In this document: one piece after another, positions 2,895 to 47,137 of the stretch
Layout: every line of letters begins with the position of its first letter
Position numbering within the stretch: the stretch's first letter is position 1
From: Klebsiella phage vB_KpM_FBKp24
Length of the DNA stretch: 64,000 nt
Sequence record: MW394391.1
Strand: one strand, 5' to 3'
Position numbers and translations under genes: made by a program
Notes under the pieces: model-generated
The model's input: only the letters and a program-made list of their open reading frames with translations
Databases searched by the model: none
What the model was told of the DNA's origin: nothing

Positions 2895-3722
2895 TCAGAA
2901 GTCTAGACGTAGCACATAGGACATGACTGGGTTACAGTAGACCGAAGCATCCGTGAGAACCGACAAGCGCCGCGACCAGTATTGACTGGTCAATAACGTT
3001 TTATTCGTCATGGCTTTTGCCATCACCCCATAAAGGGAATAGGCTACGCCGCGCGCTTGCGATTGCATCTCAAATGCTGTACGTTCTTTACCAAAGCTAT
3101 AACCCTGCCCCGGGAAGTAGAGACTGAAGCTCTCCTCACCGTAAGGGAATTGATTGACATCCAAAGATGACCATCTAGCTATTCCCGCTAACCACGTCTG
3201 GAGTTCATAATAATCCTTACCTCGTAAAAAGAAATCCGGAGATTCGTTATTCACAAGTGCGGCGCGTTGAGCGTAGGTCAAAACTGGTGTATTAAAAAGA
3301 ATTTTCGCGCAGATGTCTTCAGGGTGAATTTTGTCGATCCAAACCAGCTCGGTATTCCATGCATATAGCCATGAGAATAATTTTTGAATATGAGTTTCAA
3401 TCAGACTAGTACTTTGCTCCGTATCGAACGTGATCGTCTCGAGGAAATTCATCACCTCAGCCGTGGCTTCTTTGGCCATAGGGTAACGATCAAGTAGCGG
3501 TTCGTAAACCCCGTTCTCAGGAAACTTAACCATGATGTAGCCATCGACTAGCGAGATCGCATAGTTGATAGTGTTGTGTCCCCACGGATCGCTGTAGAAC
3601 GGATTGAGTACTTCATCAACGGTGAGGATTTGACGTTGGTTATACGTCTTTGTTCTGGCGAGGGAGTTGTTAATCCACTGTTTGACTTTCGGTATCCAAT
3701 TCTGATTCTCCGGATAAAGCAT
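2895..3722 (-). CDS. hypothetical protein (275 aa)
   Basis: ORF with a Trp/Tyr-rich product. Confidence 0.55.
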   Translation of the reverse strand: MLYPENQNWIPKVKQWINNSLARTKTYNQRQILTVDEVLNPFYSDPWGHNTINYAISLVDGYIMVKFPENGVYEPLLDRYPMAKEATAEVMNFLETITFDTEQSTSLIETHIQKLFSWLYAWNTELVWIDKIHPEDICAKILFNTPVLTYAQRAALVNNESPDFFLRGKDYYELQTWLAGIARWSSLDVNQFPYGEESFSLYFPGQGYSFGKERTAFEMQSQARGVAYSLYGVMAKAMTNKTLLTSQYWSRRLSVLTDASVYCNPVMSYVLRLDF

Positions 3723-7569: not shown

Positions 7570-9111
7570 TTAACGGAATACAAAGAGCGTATTCAATTGA
7601 GTTGGGAGGAGGATGTATCTGTATTTGGGTGAATAGTAACGTCTGGCGGTGACTTCAAGATTTCGAGCAGCGTCAACGTAATCGAGTTTGCTGATTTTTC
7701 TACCGGGTTTCGCAGTAGGGTATTGATGTTTTTCGCCATATTTAGGATCGAGTCCGTCTAATACCATTTTAAAATAATCTGGACGGCTTCTGAGCAGTTC
7801 TGCGGCGAAAGGCTGTAATACCATTAGCTGCGTAAATAAACTCACTCTGACGTGATACAGGCATCGTACGTCGAGATCCGCATCCGACCATATCGTAAGG
7901 TCTTCGTCTACTCGAATAGTACGTGGATCAAGAGGTCGATTATTCTCATAGACTGCGATATGAACCCAGCTTCCTGATCTTCGAGGTAAATAGTCTCGAG
8001 TTTCTTTCATGTACTCAATAAGGAGCGGATCAAACGCCATTTTAGGGAGATTGGTCAATGTGAGCACTTTACGGGGGTTAGTCGTGTCTACTTGAATGAG
8101 GAACTGGGTAAGGTTCGCTGTATCTGCCGCAACCTGTGTTGGCATCCAATCATCGAAAGAAGGAACAATATTCCCTCGGTTCAGATTCTTGTAGAAATAT
8201 TGATCCTGAAATAATTTACGATAACGAGTAGAGCTAATACTTCCTCGACCAGTCAAAGGATCAGCGTCGTACCAGGAGGTTTGACTGCGGTGCGTCTTAG
8301 GGACGATCTGGTTATGAATAACCAATGGGTGACTCACCATAAACGCAATCGGGCGGTCAAATCCAAAACGATAACTGAACTCGATTTCATAAGCAGTACC
8401 GTCGTCGAGTTTTTCTTCGATGGGCGGAGTATCAAATTCAAAGTTACCAAGAATATCTAATTGGGTTTCTCTGAATACGAACTGCGGTTTCTCGCCCCCT
8501 TGGGTAACAAGAACCGACCCGTCAGCCATTAGTCCTTTATTAAACCAATCAGCGAAAGTATCACCGTACCCAGCCACCTTTTCACGCATTTTGTAAAACA
8601 AGTCGAAAAAGTCAAAAAGGGTATACGGCAGTACGTAATTAAAATCGGCATAAAACGACTGATCGATAAACTGGTTACGCATAATCTTGCGCATTCTGCT
8701 CTGCCAGTTTTTGGCTTCGTTTTTATCCTTTGTCCGGTAGGTGAACGTTAACCTTGCTTTCACTGGCTCACGAATCGTAGAGAGGTACGTGTTGATTGTC
8801 GGGTCAGCCCAAACGATATTATTGTCTGGGTAGTAAAAGGCAGTGGTCAGAATATTCTCAGGCTCGGGCTCTTCTGAATAACCCACTTTCACTTTCCCGT
8901 AGAACCCAAACTTAGCGGTACTGGTGGGGTCAAATTCCTGTTGGTTTAATGTCGTTCGCCAGGTAGGAATACCGTGTTCATCGCCGGCGTATTCAATAAA
9001 GGTATCGTCTGGCATCCCGGTTACGCCGATGATCGAGCGAATCACTGCCATGGTAATTGGACGGGTAATCATGACGTCAACGTCAGGTAATTCATAAGTA
9101 AAACGTGGCAT
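7570..9111 (-). CDS. hypothetical protein (513 aa)
   Basis: Long ORF. Confidence 0.55.
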   Translation of the reverse strand: MPRFTYELPDVDVMITRPITMAVIRSIIGVTGMPDDTFIEYAGDEHGIPTWRTTLNQQEFDPTSTAKFGFYGKVKVGYSEEPEPENILTTAFYYPDNNIVWADPTINTYLSTIREPVKARLTFTYRTKDKNEAKNWQSRMRKIMRNQFIDQSFYADFNYVLPYTLFDFFDLFYKMREKVAGYGDTFADWFNKGLMADGSVLVTQGGEKPQFVFRETQLDILGNFEFDTPPIEEKLDDGTAYEIEFSYRFGFDRPIAFMVSHPLVIHNQIVPKTHRSQTSWYDADPLTGRGSISSTRYRKLFQDQYFYKNLNRGNIVPSFDDWMPTQVAADTANLTQFLIQVDTTNPRKVLTLTNLPKMAFDPLLIEYMKETRDYLPRRSGSWVHIAVYENNRPLDPRTIRVDEDLTIWSDADLDVRCLYHVRVSLFTQLMVLQPFAAELLRSRPDYFKMVLDGLDPKYGEKHQYPTAKPGRKISKLDYVDAARNLEVTARRYYSPKYRYILLPTQLNTLFVFR

Positions 9112-9179: not shown

Positions 9180-10103
9180 TTAGAGGTAAATACGACCTGC
9201 GACTTCCTTGCCTGGGACATAATCTTCACGACCAATCGTCAGGTCATCCTGCGCGTTATGGTCACGGATCGCAGAACGAATAATGTCTTCGAACTTCGAG
9301 GCTTGAGCTAACGAGACCCCCATAACCCGGCGACCATTATCAGCCACACTTATCACACCGTTTTCATCGAGGTACCCTTTGAGCGTATTAACGAACGCTG
9401 TTGTTGCCAAACGGTGAGCGTAAGGTGATTCCACAACCACTTCCAAGATACTACCGCCGATTCGGCAAACAAGAATCCCAAGCTGTTGAATTTTGGGTTT
9501 GTTACTTGCAGCAGGGGTTACTTTTTCTGGTAGCGGTTGACGAGGTTTAACCTCTACCGGGAGCTCTGGGGTTGGTTGGTCTTCAGCCAAGGTAAAAACG
9601 GGCTCCTCTGCCGGAGGGGTTGCAGTAACTTCTTTTGGTTCTGCTGCAGCGGATTCCGGGAAGTCCTGGCGCACCGAACGCAGAAATTGATCGAACATTT
9701 CAAACATCACCTGACTGTTCGCAATGTACTCAAGGACGAAATCTACCGATCGGCGGTCAAAGCATTGACAACTGAACGCCTGAACGCCCGCTATACTGAA
9801 ATTGTAATTATAAACCCCGTTATCCACAACAGTATCGCCGGCGAACTGATTGTTTTGAATTTTGAAAATACGGGGGTCGGGGGTTTTAATTGTATTGAAC
9901 AATTTCTCGTAAAGCGCCGGGCCGGGGACTTTAAACTCGATCGCAATCCCGGACGGTGTTACATTGAATAAATTATCGCCGGCTTTGTCGATATTGATCA
10001 AATTACGAATAGGTTGTACACTGACGAGGAAGTCATCGATTGTACCCTCGTAAGAAAAAGATTGTTCGAATGGGGCAGCGATGTAGTGAATAATGATAGC
10101 CAT
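9180..10103 (-). CDS. hypothetical protein (revised start, 307 aa)
   Basis: The track ORF starts at 10196, but a terminator hairpin (10161-10184) lies inside that N-terminal extension. An internal ATG at 10103 (MAIIIHY) has an aagga RBS. Confidence 0.5.
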   Translation of the reverse strand: MAIIIHYIAAPFEQSFSYEGTIDDFLVSVQPIRNLINIDKAGDNLFNVTPSGIAIEFKVPGPALYEKLFNTIKTPDPRIFKIQNNQFAGDTVVDNGVYNYNFSIAGVQAFSCQCFDRRSVDFVLEYIANSQVMFEMFDQFLRSVRQDFPESAAAEPKEVTATPPAEEPVFTLAEDQPTPELPVEVKPRQPLPEKVTPAASNKPKIQQLGILVCRIGGSILEVVVESPYAHRLATTAFVNTLKGYLDENGVISVADNGRRVMGVSLAQASKFEDIIRSAIRDHNAQDDLTIGREDYVPGKEVAGRIYL

Positions 10104-40913: not shown

Positions 40914-41448
40914 CGTACTGACTTAGCGTCAAAGGAATTTGAGCAGTTAAATCGTACTGTAACCGCAGTGAAGATTTATCATGCTCGCTTTCCTTCGTGT
41001 TTCAGTCGCCACCGAAACACCTACTTTCTCGGCTATACGAGTTAGCTTAATTTCCAGATTTTTAATACCCGATCCCTTCTACGTTGGAGAAATGGATCGA
41101 ATAGAGGTGACGCCCCCCGGACATTTTTGCCGGCTTCTTATACCCCTTTCGCCGACGCATCGGCTGGGGTTAATGGTCTGTGGCCGCCTATTTTCGCTCT
41201 GAGGCGTAGGCCGCCGAAAATGACAGGCGTCATAATTAGTACCCCTCGGCCGATTCCGCGGCGCGTTTAACCGGCGGGTCGCCGAAGTCTTTGTCTCCCC
41301 AGAGTTACTACTGTGCTATTACACGGTAGACAAATCATTCAGGAATTGAACCTGAACTCCCTTAGCTAACAAGCCTCTACTATTGACCAGGAATCTAACC
41401 TGCACTCGCTGTAAACAATATCACTTGACTAGAGTAGTATTGTAAAGG

Positions 41449-41556
41449 TGGTTGATAGGTACCGAATCGAACGGCTATCTCGGGCTCCCATGTTAAGGCG
41501 CCCCTCGCATGGGAGGGGGCCTAATGCCCGCGCTTTACCTTTAAGCTAGCCTATCA
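41449..41556 (-). tRNA. atypically long (about 108 nt) tRNA-like gene, Leu(TAG)-like anticodon loop candidate
   Basis: T-arm CCGTTCGATTCGG, 3' ACCTATCA-A-CCA, a perfectly complementary 5' acceptor TGATAGG about 100 nt upstream, and a type-II-like D-arm. A GC-rich internal insertion of about 20 nt prevents a canonical fold. Confidence 0.35.
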
Positions 41557-41671
41557 TTGAAAAGGTTCTCCATACCCAGTGGGTACTACCTACACCCGCT
41601 TTCGCATCATGAATAAAGAATAGCGTCATTGACGACTAAACAATTCAACGGTAGTCTACATGGAGATAATT

Positions 41672-41761
41672 TGGCAGAGAGTGAGAGATTTGAACTCTCG
41701 GTACCCTTTCGGATACATTCCCTTAGCAGGGGAACGACTTAAACCACTCATCCAACTCTCT
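41672..41761 (-). tRNA. tRNA-Ser(GCT)
   Basis: Acceptor AGAGAGT/ACTCTCT, anticodon arm TTCCC-CTGCTAA-GGGAA, long variable arm, T-arm GAGAG-TTCAAAT-CTCTC, CCA encoded. Confidence 0.75.
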
Positions 41762-41770
41762 ATTAAAATG

Positions 41771-41844
41771 CGACTCTTCCAGGACTTGAACCTGGGACCT
41801 ACAGCTTAACAGGCTGCCGTTCTAACCAACTGAACTAAAGAGTC
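41771..41844 (-). tRNA. tRNA-Asn(GTT)
   Basis: Acceptor GACTCTT/AAGAGTC, anticodon loop CTGTTAA, T-arm CCAGG-TTCAAGT-CCTGG. Confidence 0.7.
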
Positions 41845-41850
41845 ATTATT

Positions 41851-41925
41851 TGGCGGTGCTACGGAGAATCGAACTCCGGTCTCCTCCGTGACAGGGAGGT
41901 ATCCTTTCCGCTAGACGATAGCACC
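41851..41925 (-). tRNA. tRNA-Asp(GTC)
   Basis: Acceptor GGTGCTA/TAGCACC, anticodon arm CCTCC-CTGTCAC-GGAGG, T-loop TTCGATT, CCA encoded. Confidence 0.75.
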
Positions 41926-41933
41926 TTTTTGTT

Positions 41934-42035
41934 TGGTTGTTCCCTTCCGGATTTGAACCGGCAACCTCCTGCTAAGCAGTGGGCGGCGCAGTGGCCGCCG
42001 GTGCAGGCGCTCTACCTAGTTGAGCTACGAGAACA
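41934..42035 (-). tRNA. atypical about 100-nt tRNA-like gene (anticodon unresolved)
   Basis: 7-bp acceptor TGTTCTC/GGGAACA plus ACCA, D-arm GCTC-AACTAGGTA-GAGC and T-arm GCCGG-TTCAAAT-CCGG, but the anticodon region carries a 22-nt GC-rich insertion. Confidence 0.35.
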
Positions 42036-42042
42036 TAGTATC

Positions 42043-42116
42043 TGGAGCAAGCAGCGAGGTTCGAACTAGGGGTACGGGGATCAAAGCCCCGGGCCTTAAC
42101 CGCTTGGCTATGCTCC
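42043..42116 (-). tRNA. tRNA-Gln(TTG), possibly degenerate
   Basis: D-arm AGCCAAGCGGTTAAGGC and anticodon arm CGGGG-CTTTGAT-CCCCG resemble enteric tRNA-Gln. The T-stem and acceptor pair imperfectly, so it may be a pseudogene. Confidence 0.5.
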
Positions 42117-42124
42117 TATGCGTT

Positions 42125-42208
42125 TGGTGGGGAAGGGTAGATTCGAACTACCGAAGCCGAAGCAGCAGATTTACAGTCTGACCCATTTGACCACTCTGGA
42201 ACTTCCCC
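42125..42208 (-). tRNA. tRNA-Tyr(GTA)
   Basis: GGGGAAGTTCCAGAGTGGTCAAATGG...CAGACTGTAAATCTG...GGTAGTTCGAATCTACCCTTCCCCACCA closely resembles enterobacterial tRNA-Tyr (type II), CCA encoded. Confidence 0.8.
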
Positions 42209-42391
42209 TGAATTTGGGGCCCGATTATTTCAGCGCTGCATTCTTTACTCTCGGGCCGAGGAGCACTATTAGTTTCTTCTCAGGGCGTATTGTTTTCCCT
42301 CTGAGACTTGCGCAATGTTTGAACAGGTTGATTGTTGTCTTAACATTCCGGAGAGAAAGTTACAATCTTTGTTCATAAGATATTGATTTAC

Positions 42392-42751
42392 TTAATTTTT
42401 GATCTGCACATCAGGATTCCCATTAACCGACAGCCAAATGTCGGCAACTAAAAGAATCTGTCCACCATACTGATTGACCTGCTGCCACCCATTCTTTTTA
42501 GCGGCAACTGTAATCATTGATAAAAATTGATTTTTCCAATGACTTTGATAAATCTGGGAATGATGAATTATTCGGCGGTTTTCAAACTTCTCGATGGTCT
42601 CAAATTCTTTCGTCGCGCTGATCATAGCAAAAACATCTTTAGACTTGATCAAATAAGCAGGGTCATTAATAGACCGATCGGAAGCTAAAGGAAGACGAGA
42701 AGAAATATGGTCAACGTCTTCTTGATTGTGTGCAAACGTTACGTCGTTCAT
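42392..42751 (-). CDS. hypothetical protein embedded in tRNA island (119 aa)
   Basis: ORF. Confidence 0.45.
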   Translation of the reverse strand: MNDVTFAHNQEDVDHISSRLPLASDRSINDPAYLIKSKDVFAMISATKEFETIEKFENRRIIHHSQIYQSHWKNQFLSMITVAAKKNGWQQVNQYGGQILLVADIWLSVNGNPDVQIKN

Positions 42752-42833
42752 TTTTACTTTTACCTTTTACAAGTTAGCGGTCTAAACCAAAATAGGAAGA
42801 CCAACAAAAACTGTGGGATGAATAATAATGAAG

Positions 42834-42907
<74 letters not shown>

Positions 42908-42912
42908 GTAGA

Positions 42913-42997
42913 TGGTGCCCAGGGCGGGGCTCGAACCCGCACGCGATAAAGCGAGGGATTTTAAATCCCTTGTGTCTGCCGATTTCACCACCTGGGC
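42913..42997 (-). tRNA. tRNA-Leu(TAA)
   Basis: Type II. Acceptor GCCCAGG/CCTGGGC, anticodon arm AGGGA-TTTAAAA-TCCCT, T-arm GCGGG-TTCGAGC-CCCGC, CCA encoded. Confidence 0.7.
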
Positions 42998-43002
42998 AAA
43001 TA

Positions 43003-43078
43003 TGGTGGGTCCAGCAGGTTTTGAACCTGCGACCAAGCGATTATGAGTCGCCTGCTCTAACCACTGAGCTATGGACCC
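43003..43078 (-). tRNA. tRNA-Met(CAT) (elongator/initiator/Ile2 not distinguishable)
   Basis: Acceptor GGGTCCA/TGGACCC, D-arm GCTCAGTGGTTAGAGC, anticodon loop CTCATAA, T-arm GCAGG-TTCAAAA-CCTGC, CCA encoded. Confidence 0.75.
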
Positions 43079-43129
43079 AAAAACGATCTTTTATTAAGAG
43101 CACATAAATGTACCCTTTGTAAAATACCG

Positions 43130-43294
43130 TCAGCTAGATTGTTTCTTTTTCTTTCTGAAAGCTAACTGCACATAAATAGCAATTGCACCAGCAAGAATAA
43201 TAAGCAGGACAATGTCAATCAACACACCTGCCATTCGAAACAATACTAAAAAGATGACGGCCAGTATTATTAACCAGCCGATCTTTTTCAGCAT
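43130..43294 (-). CDS. small two-helix membrane protein (54 aa, not in ORF track)
   Basis: Hand translation gives MLKKIGWLIILAVIFLVLFRMAGVLIDIVLLIILAGAIAIYVQLAFRKKKKQSS. It starts 4 nt after the SBP stop. Confidence 0.45.
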   Translation of the reverse strand: MLKKIGWLIILAVIFLVLFRMAGVLIDIVLLIILAGAIAIYVQLAFRKKKKQSS

Positions 43295-43297
43295 AAC

Positions 43298-44155
43298 TTA
43301 TTTCCCTGACGCTGTACCCTGGATACGCGCAGAGTTCTTCAGAAGAATCGTAGAGGCGTCTTCCAGTAACTGATCGCTATCGCCGGAGGTGTTTGCTACC
43401 ACCAGGGTTTTAGTGCAAGGTACTTTTACTGTCGAGTTAAAGATAATACCCGAGTCAGTAGTTGCCTTTTCGATCGTGTATACCGCTTTACCGTTTGGCA
43501 GTTTTGCATCGGCGTTCCAGGAATTGAAATCAATGATTTCCAGTCCGGAGTCTTTTTGCATAACAGCATCAAGGAACTTATTGTTTCGATCAGGCGCTGA
43601 GACCCAGAGGAATGCATCGTACTCGCCGGTATTCACTTTAGCCAGGGACCGGATACCGCCCTTAGCGTAGGTTTCAACTTTCGCGTAGTTCTTTTCCAGA
43701 GTTTGGAGATACTGCCATGAGGCATAAGATCCGGAAGTAGGTTCGCCGACGGCAATCTTGGTCCCTTCCTTCAGGTCACCTTTGCTTGTGACCTTACCGT
43801 CTTTCTTGACGGCAACGAAAACGCACTCGGAAGCCAGTTCGCCGATGATGTCAACGTTCTGTGCTTCATTAGCATGGCGTGAACGCCAGAACTGATACGC
43901 GTCAGCTTGAGTAAAACCGATAGTTGCTTCACCGGCGGCGACACGATCCAGGTTATCGAGTGATCCTTTAGAGGGGAGCACAGTGGTCTGATAGCCGTAT
44001 TCGCCGAGAGCGCTGGCTAAGTTAACACCGTATGTGGCGTTATACGTCAGACCTTGTTGACCGGTCGTGATAACAACTTTGTCAGATGCCGCAGAGGCAC
44101 CAACGGAAAGGCAAAGCAACGCTACCGAAAACACGGCAAAAGCAAGTTTCTTCAT
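43298..44155 (-). CDS. TAXI-family (TRAP-type) periplasmic solute-binding protein with signal peptide
   Basis: N-terminal MKKLAFAVFSVALLCLSVGASA, and the TAXI signature ITTGQQGLTYNATYGVNLASALGEYGYQTTVLPSKGSLDNLDRVAAGEATIGFTQADAYQF (TGGxxGxYY...G...T.GS.EN..L..GEAD.G..QAD). Confidence 0.6.
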   Translation of the reverse strand: MKKLAFAVFSVALLCLSVGASAASDKVVITTGQQGLTYNATYGVNLASALGEYGYQTTVLPSKGSLDNLDRVAAGEATIGFTQADAYQFWRSRHANEAQNVDIIGELASECVFVAVKKDGKVTSKGDLKEGTKIAVGEPTSGSYASWQYLQTLEKNYAKVETYAKGGIRSLAKVNTGEYDAFLWVSAPDRNNKFLDAVMQKDSGLEIIDFNSWNADAKLPNGKAVYTIEKATTDSGIIFNSTVKVPCTKTLVVANTSGDSDQLLEDASTILLKNSARIQGTASGK

Positions 44156-44203
44156 TTGTCAATTTCCTTGAAGGGTGTCAATGCGGTTTACCCGCTAAGA
44201 GAT

Positions 44204-44325
44204 TTGAGCGGATGACGAGTTGGCCCAACATTTGTATCAACCTGCGTCTACTAAAAAGGGCTTGCCTTTGTTTCGTGCTACCTGTAAGGGTTTAAGGTTA
44301 AGTTTGTTGCAAGTCATCCGCTCAA
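44204..44325 (-). promoter_or_regulatory. structured leader / long-range inverted repeat upstream of the SBP gene
   Basis: 13-bp arms ttgagcggatgac (44204-44216) and gtcatccgctcaa (44313-44325) enclose about 96 nt. It lies in the 5' region of the minus-strand SBP transcript. Confidence 0.4.
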
Positions 44326-44666
44326 AAGGGTGATGCTTTCTGTAAGTTTCAGCTCATTCCATTCTTTGGTTTCCGGGCCACAGTAGGATTAAAGGTGAAA
44401 GGTCTGCTGGAACAGATTTTCTTACAGAAAGGCATCGATAATAAAAAAACAGGCTTCGAGAAAAAGAGAGTTAGCTATGGGAGTTTAACTACATCGAAGC
44501 CTGGTTGGAAAATGTGTCGTTGTCTCCCCGATGAGGGGAGAACCGTAAAGCAAATGTTCTTATCTTTCCAGCCAGCCCGCTATCGAGATAATCCGAATAT
44601 GAACAATCGCTTTTTGACGTTATTTCGTAACGACGAGAGTTTACTACCGTGAAAGGAACCTTTGGT

Positions 44667-44873
44667 TCATAACTCTGACGACTGAGTAAATTTTAACCAA
44701 AGTGGTAAAGGTACTTTTTGGAATTCCGTTCCTTGACACTCATTGCAGACTAACGGCTCTTCTTTGATTTTCCAGCGCTCAAGTTGTTTCTTCGTGGCTG
44801 GGGTTAAACAATTTACGCATTGCATTTCCACTGCCATAAATTTGCCTTCTAGATAAAAGACCAATCTTCCCAT
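44667..44873 (-). CDS. small zinc-finger protein (68 aa)
   Basis: CVNC...CNEC pattern, coupled to the upstream gene. Confidence 0.45.
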   Translation of the reverse strand: MGRLVFYLEGKFMAVEMQCVNCLTPATKKQLERWKIKEEPLVCNECQGTEFQKVPLPLWLKFTQSSEL

Positions 44874-45736
44874 TCGGGACGTTTAGAGTAACAACGAGCA
44901 TAAACTTCCTTTGGTTGAATATTCTCTCCCTGAGAACACTTAAAAGCATTAGCGTATTCGTTCTTACCAGCTTTTACTCGGCGACGGTAATTTGGGTTGT
45001 TTTTACTTTGTGAGTTATTCGCCTGGCGGGATTCGTTGTATTTATCCTTCCAATGACTTTTAACTTTCCGGTCCGGGCCATAGTCATCCGAACGTTCTTC
45101 AATCACAACAGGAAACCCTTGTCGCGTCTCTTTCCACCAGACAGAGAATCCCTTCGAGACATCCCAATTTTGATTTGGGTAATGACAAGACAGAAAACGG
45201 GACGCTAATCTTTTAATGGGTGTAAGATCAAAAGCAGTTTGTAACACCTTGCTGGAATGTATTCCCATCCGTAAAAATTCTTCCGTTTGTACTACAGCAT
45301 GTCTCGGCATACGAGACACTTCGCTGTAATAAACATTAGAGTCTTTAGGATGGAAAATAACGACGCCTTCAATCGTTTTGTCTTTTACATCCGGAATTTT
45401 AATTAAACCAATATGATTCCAGTTAGGGAAATGTTTACCTTGACGATTAGCGAAGTGGAGCCATAATTCATTTTCTTTCCACTCCGCTTTTTGTAGATTA
45501 AAGCCTAAGGTTACTTTGGTCAGTTGTTCTTTGAATGTATCAAGAAAAACCTGATAAAGCTCAAAGAACTCAGCAGTCAATTTTACTTCGTTACGTGAAA
45601 CAAACTGTTGTGCGGACCATTCAAGTAAGCAATGACCGAGAATTTCCCAGTCTTTATTTTCATCAGAGAAAGCGGATATCATTTTACGGAGCCTCTGGCT
45701 CAACGTCAAAATGATAATCGTAGTTGAGTCAGTCAT
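44849..45736 (-). CDS. hypothetical protein with basic Lys/Arg/Asn-rich C-terminus (295 aa)
   Basis: ORF flanked by tRNA loci, with an RNA-binding-like basic tail. Confidence 0.5.
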   Translation of the reverse strand: MTDSTTIIILTLSQRLRKMISAFSDENKDWEILGHCLLEWSAQQFVSRNEVKLTAEFFELYQVFLDTFKEQLTKVTLGFNLQKAEWKENELWLHFANRQGKHFPNWNHIGLIKIPDVKDKTIEGVVIFHPKDSNVYYSEVSRMPRHAVVQTEEFLRMGIHSSKVLQTAFDLTPIKRLASRFLSCHYPNQNWDVSKGFSVWWKETRQGFPVVIEERSDDYGPDRKVKSHWKDKYNESRQANNSQSKNNPNYRRRVKAGKNEYANAFKCSQGENIQPKEVYARCYSKRPEWEDWSFI

Positions 45737-45793
45737 ATTGCCCTCGTTTTACAGTCTTCTACACTAAAAGACTGCACCGTAAAAAAGCATAAT

Positions 45794-45821
45794 AGAGAGA
45801 AGGGTTTAAACCCTTCTCTCT
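45794..45821 (-). terminator. Rho-independent terminator (minus strand)
   Basis: Hairpin agagagaaggg-tttaaa-cccttctctct followed on the minus strand by gcttttttacgg. Confidence 0.7.
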
Positions 45822-45984
45822 CGAGTTTGTTTGTCAAAAAGCGGTCTCTTTGAGAAAGAAACTTTTAGGGAAGAAGGGCGACGGATAAGGATATAACCAT
45901 CCTCACCGCCACCCATAGCCATTCAGCTATAAACAGAATCCAGCGCGACCTATTTCACAATAAGATTGGGTTTAGGTTTATAAT

Positions 45985-46078
45985 CTAGTGCTCTACCAGC
46001 TGAGCTATCTGCCTCCAAGAAACACTCTGTGAATGTGTCCTGGTAGGCAGAGCGGAATTCGAATCCGCGACCTCTAGA
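45985..46078 (-). tRNA. permuted or fragmented tRNA-like locus (3' half upstream of 5' half on the coding strand)
   Basis: Minus-strand 3' half TCTAG-AGGTC-GCGGA-TTCGAAT-TCCGC-TCTGCCT-A-CCA (46041-46078) is followed after a 25-nt spacer by the 5' half AGGCAGA-TA-GCTCAGCTGGTAGAGC-A-CTAGA (46015 down to 45985). The acceptor and anticodon-stem halves are mutually complementary. Confidence 0.4.
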
Positions 46079-46189
46079 ATTCTTTCCGTAAAAGAAAGAA
46101 AGTTCAGTCCGCTATTTTACTGTCTACTCTTTATCTTTAAGCGTGTGAGGCGATAAGATAAAGTTAACACTAACCATCCGAGTAGCATT

Positions 46190-46300
46190 ATGGGTGCATT
46201 GATGACTGCGTCTACCAATTCCGCCATTCTCCCATAGTTTGGTGGGAGAAGAAAGATTCGAACTTCCAGTGAGGTCACCACACCTGCTATACGGACTAAC
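46190..46300 (-). tRNA. second permuted or fragmented tRNA-like locus (type-II/Leu-like 5' half)
   Basis: 3' half GGAAG-TTCGAAT-CTTTC-TTCTCCC-A-CCA (46240-46267) is followed after 6 nt by the 5' half GGGAGAA-TG-GCGGAATTGGTAGACGC (46233 down to 46208), whose D-arm is near-identical to enterobacterial tRNA-Leu. Confidence 0.35.
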
Positions 46301-46369
46301 AATAAAGATAAAGTTGGCCTCAATCTTTATTATCAATGGGCACTCGTGAGAATACCCATTACTAACACA

Positions 46370-47137
46370 TTAAGCAGTGAAGTTTTTCAGGATCACGTTG
46401 GCCAGTACTTCGCCGATGGAACCCTGAACGACTTCGGTGCAGTTTGCGCGCATACGGGCATTAGTGACTTCAACGATCAGTTCGTCGATATCACGCAGCG
46501 CGTTGGCTTTCTGCATCGGTGTACACGCGCCAGAATAACTTTTACGCGTGAAGCTGCCGATCACCACGGTCGTTTCTGACTCTTTTACTTGCGCCGGATG
46601 ACGCTCGGTAGCCGGCGCCAGAATGATCGGGGTGAAGACTTTTTCGGTTTTCGTTGTGACTTCATCAGTCACAGTACGGAAGCCGTAAGTACTGTTAGCG
46701 TCGCGTTCCCACTGTTTGGAGGAATCCAGCGTAGGAGCAGACGCGATCAGTTTGCGCAGTTCGGCCAGACGTTTCTCCAGACCGAGGAGTTCATCTACCG
46801 GCACCGCTGGAACGAGGACTTCGCCTTTGAACATGATATCTGCTTTCGCTACCTGATTGGTCAGGGCTTTTTGCAGGCGCAGGTCTTCCGCGGTGGCGAA
46901 GTAATAGAACAGGTACTGCAGCGTTTCGGCGACGGTAGTGATCACCGGCTTGCTGGTACTTTCGCTTTTTTCGATCGCTGCGTTGGCGTCGCTATCTTCG
47001 TGCAGTTTCAGCGTTTTATCAAATCCGCTGAAGTATTCAGCCGATTTATTGAATTTTTTACTGGCGTCTTCGATCAGCACTTGCACTTGTTTAGTGCGAG
47101 TAGGTTCTGCTGCCAATACTTCGTGTAACTTAGCCAT
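46370..47137 (-). CDS. hypothetical protein (255 aa)
   Basis: ORF, followed by a strong terminator. Confidence 0.55.
   Translation of the reverse strand: MAKLHEVLAAEPTRTKQVQVLIEDASKKFNKSAEYFSGFDKTLKLHEDSDANAAIEKSESTSKPVITTVAETLQYLFYYFATAEDLRLQKALTNQVAKADIMFKGEVLVPAVPVDELLGLEKRLAELRKLIASAPTLDSSKQWERDANSTYGFRTVTDEVTTKTEKVFTPIILAPATERHPAQVKESETTVVIGSFTRKSYSGACTPMQKANALRDIDELIVEVTNARMRANCTEVVQGSIGEVLANVILKNFTA

Follow-up and report, generated by a model that had tools for sequence, protein, structure and literature searches.

A TAXI-fold binding protein gene paired with a small membrane hairpin gene and a structured leader in the tRNA island of Klebsiella phage vB_KpM_FBKp24

We analyzed a stretch of 64,000 nucleotides (nt) from Klebsiella phage vB_KpM_FBKp24 (phiKp24; record MW394391.1), hereafter the window, and in it a two-gene cassette on the minus strand of the phage tRNA island. 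The first gene (43298..44155) encodes a 285 amino acid (aa) TAXI-fold binding protein that is exported and has no TRAP partner. The second (43130..43294) encodes a 54-aa membrane protein made of two helices, basic at both termini, referred to below as the hairpin. The locus is probably a widespread phage membrane module rather than a borrowed transport gene. The best explanation, to which we give an even chance of being correct, is that the TAXI protein is the periplasmic ligand-binding partner of the membrane hairpin, and that the two genes make up a phage accessory membrane module under translational control. A sequence-only reading of this DNA had seen a host-like transport component rather than a typical phage gene. 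The TAXI gene is no isolated acquisition of that kind: it belongs to a clade of phages and mobile elements and is strictly coupled to a small membrane protein, which ties it to the tci and TerB-DUF3927 genes.

Under this explanation the first product would be a Sec-exported periplasmic TAXI-fold binding protein, and the second a helical hairpin of the inner membrane whose two ends lie in the cytoplasm and whose short periplasmic turn is conserved. The conserved partner of TAXI is this hairpin rather than a TRAP permease, and TAXI would act as a periplasmic ligand-dependent sensor or modulator of the hairpin rather than as a transporter subunit. A leader of ~235 nt, from terminator to ribosome-binding site and with two long-range helices, would most likely control translation or stability of the mRNA. 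If this is true, TAXI proteins are not solely transporter subunits, and phages have taken one over as the periplasmic counterpart of a very small membrane protein. The analysis joins three things so far unexplained, namely the orphan TAXI genes of phages, the tci/TerB-DUF3927 genes, and the accessory genes that lie in phage tRNA islands, and gives them testable partners. It also adds two candidate cis-regulatory RNAs outside Rfam, one of them widespread in enterobacterial prophages, including those of enterohemorrhagic Escherichia coli (EHEC). The sources searched appear to contain no description of the hairpin partner, of the tie to TerB-DUF3927/tci or of either structured leader.

The TAXI-fold protein and its conserved partner

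The TAXI annotation of the 285-aa gene is already public: the product is 100% identical to the protein 'TRAP transporter solute receptor, TAXI family [Klebsiella phage vB_KpM_FBKp24]' in the phiKp24 record. According to its genome paper, phiKp24 is a jumbo phage with nine tRNAs and with genes for nucleus-shell and tubulin proteins; the TAXI gene is not discussed there (PMC8386662). The same assignment had been made in the sequence-only reading, and profile, fold and four ligand-contact residues support it. The protein scores 48.2 bits against Pfam NMT1_3 (PF16868), above the cut-off of 27, and it matches PHROG 6856, a family of unknown function, at 8.7e-108. The best matches of a PDB profile search are TAXI proteins only. 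An AlphaFold2 (AF2) model reached a predicted local distance difference test score (pLDDT) of 88 and a predicted template modeling score (pTM) of 0.82. Structure comparison with characterized TAXI proteins, which the same reading had suggested, put TAXI entries on top: in a Foldseek search of the PDB with the AF2 model, the top seven rows comprise six TAXI entries (9IBO, 4DDD, 8S4J, 9IBP, 8U79, 1US4), at E-values of 1e−12 to 2e−15 and TM-scores of 0.59–0.68.

VcGluP (8S4J/9IBO) and TtGluBP (1US4/8U79) are the best structural and profile matches, and the phage protein is like them in its two-lobe fold, its export and four lobe-1 contacts. It differs from them in sequence (16–18% identity), is ~40 residues shorter and falls below the cut-off of TIGR02122 (TRAP_TAXI; 63.6 bits against 84.35), with only profile positions 1–265 of 320 aligned. 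Unlike them, it has no QM permease gene, is found in phages and mobile elements only, and is paired with a hairpin of 50 aa. In a hidden Markov model (HMM) alignment, the invariant residues Y38, S65, Q83, E110, and G142 align with Y45, S75, Q93, E125, and G156 of VcGluP (PMC11574862). VcGluP D157 is replaced by S143 in the same alignment, and no alignment to the phage protein was obtained for Y200 and M201, the lobe-2 ligand residues of VcGluP. In VcGluP, glutamate is held by its amino and alpha-carboxyl groups through Y45, S75, Q93, and E125, with Y45 and Q93 as the key determinants (PMC11574862). The lobe-1 residues for the alpha-amino and alpha-carboxyl groups are therefore kept, and the ligand of the phage protein is probably an amino-acid-like small molecule, a ligand class that we infer from these residues.

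C111 and C247 are also invariant in the TAXI homologs. Read by eye, the N terminus is signal-like (MKKLAFAVFSVALLCLSVGASA), running from MKK through a hydrophobic core to ASA, and this export-signal pattern is kept in homologs. A lipoprotein can be ruled out because there is no lipobox. Purifying selection acts on both genes of the cassette: in a comparison with phage LPKP23, which represents a sister lineage, the TAXI gene has a ratio of nonsynonymous to synonymous substitution rates (dN/dS) of 0.029 and the 54-aa open reading frame (ORF) one of 0.099. Judged by its sequence, the 285-aa product is a functional TAXI-fold binding protein. The synonymous rate (dS) between the same two phages is 0.25 in the 54-aa ORF and 1.17 in the TAXI gene; the low value suggests an extra nucleotide-level constraint beside the tRNA, or recent recombination.

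The 54-aa two-helix peptide is present as the sequence-only reading had it, in the same frame as the TAXI ORF and with TAA and GTT between the two. An adjoining small two-helix ORF was found in 63/63 full-length TAXI loci in IMG/VR. In 51 of these loci, from Klebsiella jumbo phages and lambdoid prophages, it lies downstream of TAXI; in the other 12, from Erwinia jumbo phages and others, it lies upstream. The hairpin of the window carries the motif R20-x2-G23-x-L25-x-D27, and hairpins of the downstream type share R20, G23, L25, and D27 as invariant residues. A Cobetia mobile element with integrase, DnaB and ligase genes carries a TAXI homolog of 46% identity, likewise with an adjoining small two-helix ORF.

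No TRAP permease accompanies these genes. No ORF of the 64 kb window has more than two predicted transmembrane segments, and none in 75 related phage and prophage loci has more than three. Four control loci with canonical TAXI genes each have an ORF of 14–15 segments next to that gene. The sequence-only reading had already stated that no permease accompanies TAXI; its idea that the phage protein hijacks a host TRAP permease is not favored by the partner pattern. The Ralstonia jumbo phages RP12 and RP31 show another kind of neighbor for a phage binding protein: their TRAP solute-receptor-like ORF sits directly beside ORFs for ABC transporter subunits (PMC5468394). A likeness outside phages is the TAXI-GltS system of Bordetella pertussis (BP0403), in which TAXI is coupled, both genetically and in translation, to a membrane protein that does not belong to TRAP either (PMC12344293). 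That partner is a full glutamate symporter, whereas the partner in the window is a two-helix peptide and no transporter by itself.

By tblastn, the TAXI gene is carried by Klebsiella jumbo phages (94–99.6% identity), Erwinia and Salmonella jumbo phages (63–72%), and Pseudaeromonas phage KLEP7 (49%). The nearest phage-collection record to the protein is phage Centimanus (98.8% identity). Homologs labeled as bacterial, at 72–75% identity (Phytobacter, Kluyvera, and others), belong to lambdoid prophages, in which the holin and lysozyme genes lie downstream of them; in the Phytobacter loci a gene for a Q-type antiterminator immediately precedes them. Stx phages carry stx in this slot between Q and holin. 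Of 185,579 species-representative genomes, only six have a relative at an identity of at least 37%. Three orphan genes in Oceanospirillales (37–46% identity; L245:1624-3669, L246, and L247:783-2648) are the closest relatives on chromosomes, and these lie beside genes for methyl-accepting chemotaxis proteins (MCPs).

Two structured leaders

Upstream of the TAXI gene, on the minus strand, the window carries a leader with two long-range helices. The inverted repeat of 13 bp reported by the sequence-only reading is real and can be refined to a perfect 14-mer, our helix B, with its 5′ arm at 44313..44326 (UUUGAGCGGAUGAC) and its 3′ arm at 44203..44216 (GUCAUCCGCUCAAA). It is the sole perfect inverted repeat of at least 13 nt with a gap of 20–150 nt in the window; first-order Markov simulations gave a mean of 0.125 such 13-mer matches. 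Two elements further upstream had been missed. One is a second long-range helix, helix A (5′ arm 44421..44436, GAUGCCUUUCUGUAAG; 3′ arm 44332..44346, CUUACAGAAAGCAUC), and the other is an intrinsic terminator of the upstream genes at 44443..44503 (CAGGCUUCGA...UCGAAGCCUG plus U7), which keeps its structure and has an altered stem sequence in the sister lineage. Domain A contains an invariant loop block of 18 nt (44371..44388, UCCUACUGUGGCCCGGAA) and domain B an invariant block of 33 nt (44262..44294, CUUAAACCCUUACAGGUAGCACGAAACAAAGGC). These blocks are unchanged despite the dS of 1.17 in the adjoining TAXI gene. Closest to the gene is a small stem-loop, GCGG-GUAAA-CCGC (44183..44195), followed by CACCCUUCAAGGAAA with the Shine-Dalgarno sequence AAGGA at 44169-44165.

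The leader folds with a z-score of −3.0, and that of LPKP23 with −3.5. Both long-range helices are present in the own minimum-free-energy fold of 9/9 relatives, in which the arms have changed and stayed complementary. In the sister lineage the arms of helix A (GAUGAUAUCUACAGAU/GUUUGUAGAUGUCAUC) and helix B (UUUGAGGGGCUGAC/GUCAGCCUCUCAAA) are complementary although they differ from those of the window at numerous positions in either arm. Some variants affect one position and turn a G-U into a G-C pair. As judged from these folds and changes, which come from two independent lineages, the leader appears to be structured, as the sequence-only reading had it, and conserved in structure. A CCCUU at 44330-44326, just upstream of the 5′ arm of helix B, is a candidate anti-Shine-Dalgarno; only the consensus fold predicts its pairing to the Shine-Dalgarno sequence.

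The sequence-only reading had put the repeat at the size of a riboswitch or attenuator and suggested an Rfam scan of the leader. No Rfam family matches: a permissive scan of 41000-47000 gave no match between 44156 and 44666. Further lineages of the two-domain leader were likewise not found. Local motif searches matched Klebsiella jumbo phages only, a 15-mer scan of a viral collection returned chance matches and one known relative only, and two metagenome scans found nothing.

A second leader, of ~135 nt, is common to TAXI and TerB cassettes of prophages and to Erwinia jumbo phages, and lies 3′ of a variable intrinsic terminator. It consists of a stem-loop P1, a pseudoknot formed where helix a engages the apical part of a long hairpin, and a helix b. 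Across 47 distinct sequences, P1 is 98.7% paired, with 5/5 pairs changed on both sides, helix a is 88% paired and helix b 95%. In all, 21/30 pairs have changed on both sides, compared to 11.5 ± 1.6 in shuffles (0/500 reach 21), and slid controls are 31–48% paired. Helix c is 51.7% paired, with the model-fitted alignment out of register there. Each of four representatives has CCUU(U) or CUUUU base-paired to the Shine-Dalgarno sequence in its minimum-free-energy fold. This leader therefore has strong covariation support, and sequestration of the Shine-Dalgarno sequence is predicted by the folds. The model of the common leader, R1, gives the prophage and Erwinia leaders 37–144 bits, and an Rfam scan of nine related loci assigned the motif to no family. 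Copies lie at L014:2873-3003, L124:11552-11688, L059:1351-1492, and L147 ~9580-9716, and on more than 120 viral contigs.

Against the leader of the window, R1 scores 8 bits (E-value 0.075 in 1 kb) with the central 78 positions missing; only the small stem-loop at 44183..44195 and the CACCCUUCAAGGAAA tail resemble the common leader. Both leaders are like those that sequester the Shine-Dalgarno sequence, i.e., translational riboswitches and RNA thermometers, in having a long conserved structure between terminator and ribosome-binding site, with covarying stems and invariant loops. The Shine-Dalgarno sequence of the prophage motif is paired in the minimum-free-energy folds of all four representatives, and that of the window is predicted to be so in the consensus fold only. 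Neither has an Rfam family, unlike the known leaders of this kind.

Weaker copies of the common motif (30–51 bits) occur elsewhere in prophage loci (L003:11522-11643, L145:8847-8993, L150:3692-3815, L207:6139-6277 and 7580-7725, L133, L191, L129, and L125). Some of these precede other genes, such as one for a 193-aa protein in both L133 and L191 or the 252-aa gene of L003 at 11641, and the motif may be a general leader for accessory genes. In three loci (L079, L080, L084; ~2947-3316) the leader is followed by a deletion derivative, in which a TAXI remnant is fused to the reading frame of the small protein. The PasA/PasC and PasD/STnc100 small RNAs, from prophages of EHEC and enteropathogenic E. 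coli (EPEC), were considered as the common leader and rejected; they sit elsewhere, around an esterase gene.

A probable connection to TerB-DUF3927 and tci genes

The common leader connects the TAXI cassettes to a second gene family. The prophage TAXI leaders yielded a covariance model that matched Erwinia jumbo phages upstream of a TerB-like gene, which is followed by the small hairpin ORF and then by TAXI. In a pattern scan of the viral collection (at least 120 loci), the first gene was TerB-like, with 141–143 aa, in 87 of the matches listed, and 84/87 of these had an overlapping two-helix ORF after it. A representative of this ORF, the E. coli prophage homolog, matches Pfam DUF3927 (PF13064; 58.8 bits). 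The leader motif is thus common to TerB and TAXI cassettes, and four architectures can be told apart: leader, TerB and hairpin in lambdoid prophages; leader, TerB, hairpin and TAXI in Erwinia jumbo phages; leader, TAXI and hairpin in lambdoid prophages; and a different leader, TAXI and hairpin in the window.

The TerB-like/DUF3927 pair (e.g., L147:9716-10308 and L277:1801-2576) occurs in 939/5426 complete E. coli genomes, at a median of four places per genome. It corresponds to tciA-tciB(-tciC) of P1-like phages, in which tRNA(CAT) follows directly; the window has the same order of small ORF and then tRNA-Met(CAT). The tciABC genes were reportedly named in the P1 genome paper for tellurite or colicin resistance by homology. 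R1 gave no match upstream of the P1-like tciA. The P1 and lambdoid genes are like the cassette of the window in having a small two-helix membrane protein beside a soluble partner, in accessory slots near phage tRNAs. The window differs from them in its periplasmic partner, in a hairpin below the Pfam DUF3927 threshold, and in lacking both the common leader and a TerB-like gene, for which phmmer searches with two TerB-like proteins found no match among all window ORFs.

The hairpin of the window and DUF3927/TciB have in common a length of ~50 aa, two helices, basic ends, an adjoining gene for a soluble partner, and a phage accessory slot. In hhalign comparisons with DUF3927, the Erwinia hairpins gave a probability of 96% (E-value 4.7e−9) and the TAXI-linked hairpins, including that of the window, gave 72% (E-value 3.4e−5) over 30 columns with the R...D motif aligned. 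From this profile-profile comparison, the window hairpin is therefore a probable, if unproven, relative of DUF3927/P1 TciB, distant and divergent. The hairpin is the conserved element, and in other phages a small hairpin of this kind adjoins TerB or TerB and TAXI; thus we infer that TAXI acts as its partner.

Several points weigh against the locus being a two-gene membrane module of this kind. Physical contact between TAXI and the hairpin is suggested by their pairing in genomes only. The ORF list of Pseudaeromonas phage KLEP7 shows no obvious hairpin ORF beside TAXI. The 54-aa protein of the window has no match to PF13064 even at E-values up to 10, and the hhalign probability is only 72%, for sequences that are short and hydrophobic. 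Covariation in the leader of the window comes from two independent lineages only. TAXI may have a transport role via a host protein, with GltS-type partners among the possibilities (PMC12344293), and the leader region could be a gene of its own; both alternatives are weighed below.

Competing explanations and the surrounding tRNA island

The strongest competitor, with a modest chance of being right, is a Ter/Tci-type module for envelope protection or exclusion, in which the hairpin and its partner would change the inner membrane or the periplasm and so block DNA entry by superinfecting phages, pore-forming colicins or similar insults, with TAXI as the periplasmic component. The hairpin and leader that relate the cassette to TerB-DUF3927 pairs and P1 tciABC argue for it, as do the moron slots it occupies, from Q to holin in lambdoid prophages and in the tRNA islands of lytic phages. 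Against it, a purely steric blocker would not need conserved ligand-contact residues, and the literature searched held no functional description of DUF3927 or tciAB/tciABC. For a periplasmic TAXI partner of the hairpin, envelope-level protection or exclusion in the Ter/Tci sense would also be the likeliest physiological role, and lysis timing is among the candidates.

It is unlikely that the TAXI gene is an auxiliary metabolic gene whose product docks onto a host TRAP-QM or GltS-type symporter and raises uptake of glutamate or related compounds, with the hairpin as an adaptor or unrelated. The fold is that of transporter binding proteins, and enterobacteria carry gltS. The lobe-1 glutamate-contact residues are conserved (PMC11574862), and TAXI-GltS pairing exists in bacteria (PMC12344293). 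However, none of the 75 loci holds a permease, the pairing with a 50-aa hairpin is strict, the TIGR02122 match ends at profile position 265 of 320, and the closest chromosomal relatives adjoin chemoreceptor rather than transporter genes. Transport via a host permease also fits poorly because a cytoplasmic TerB-like protein, which would be useless for uptake, can take the place of TAXI in the cassette, and in most prophages it fills the slot behind the same leader.

We consider it improbable to about the same degree that the structured region 44203-44436 is a gene in its own right, for a small RNA among the tRNAs, and no regulatory leader of TAXI. The T4 tRNA cluster, which contains stable RNAs, would be a model for such a gene. 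The region lies in the tRNA island, directly follows an intrinsic terminator, has invariant loops and covarying stems, and is unlike the leader before the same cassette in other phages. Yet there is no terminator between it and the TAXI start, the consensus fold allows pairing of the Shine-Dalgarno sequence with the CCCUU beside helix B, and other cassettes carry a structured leader in the same place.

A broader proposal, which we regard as quite doubtful, is that the DUF3927-like hairpin is a membrane switch with interchangeable sensors (periplasmic TAXI, cytoplasmic TerB, or both), in which TAXI senses a periplasmic amino-acid-like molecule, possibly derived from the cell wall or lysis, the switch sets lysis timing in an antiholin-like manner or exclusion, and riboswitch-like leaders gate the cassette.

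The tRNA-island setting given in the sequence-only reading holds, with minus-strand tRNAs on either side of the cassette. On one side are tRNA-Met/Leu/Arg (42833-43078), of which tRNA-Met(CAT) at 43003..43078 is 52 nt downstream of the small ORF, and five more tRNAs (41672-42208); on the other is a suppressor-type tRNA(tta) at 46041-46125. Rfam also calls a 97-nt tRNA (41938-42034, minus strand, 38 bits) that ARAGORN did not report. Its slot is annotated in relatives as tRNA-Gly(tcc) or 'tRNA-OTHER', and it may be an interrupted or unusual tRNA. A weak match to YrlA, a Y-RNA-like family, lies at 45983-46076 on the minus strand (37.9 bits against a gathering score of 69) and abuts tRNA(tta); Erwinia phage Huxley has a comparable weak YrlA match among its tRNAs (L059 5447-5509). 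Between both tRNA clusters is a 119-aa ORF (42392-42751, minus strand), which is conserved in relatives; its only matches are to several PHROG families of unknown function, and these cover just the C-terminal ends of the families. In Centimanus an HNH endonuclease gene, which the window lacks at 42997-43003, sits between tRNA-Leu and tRNA-Met (L001:4235-4696), and in phage KpLz-2_45 a different HNH gene replaces part of the tRNA cluster.

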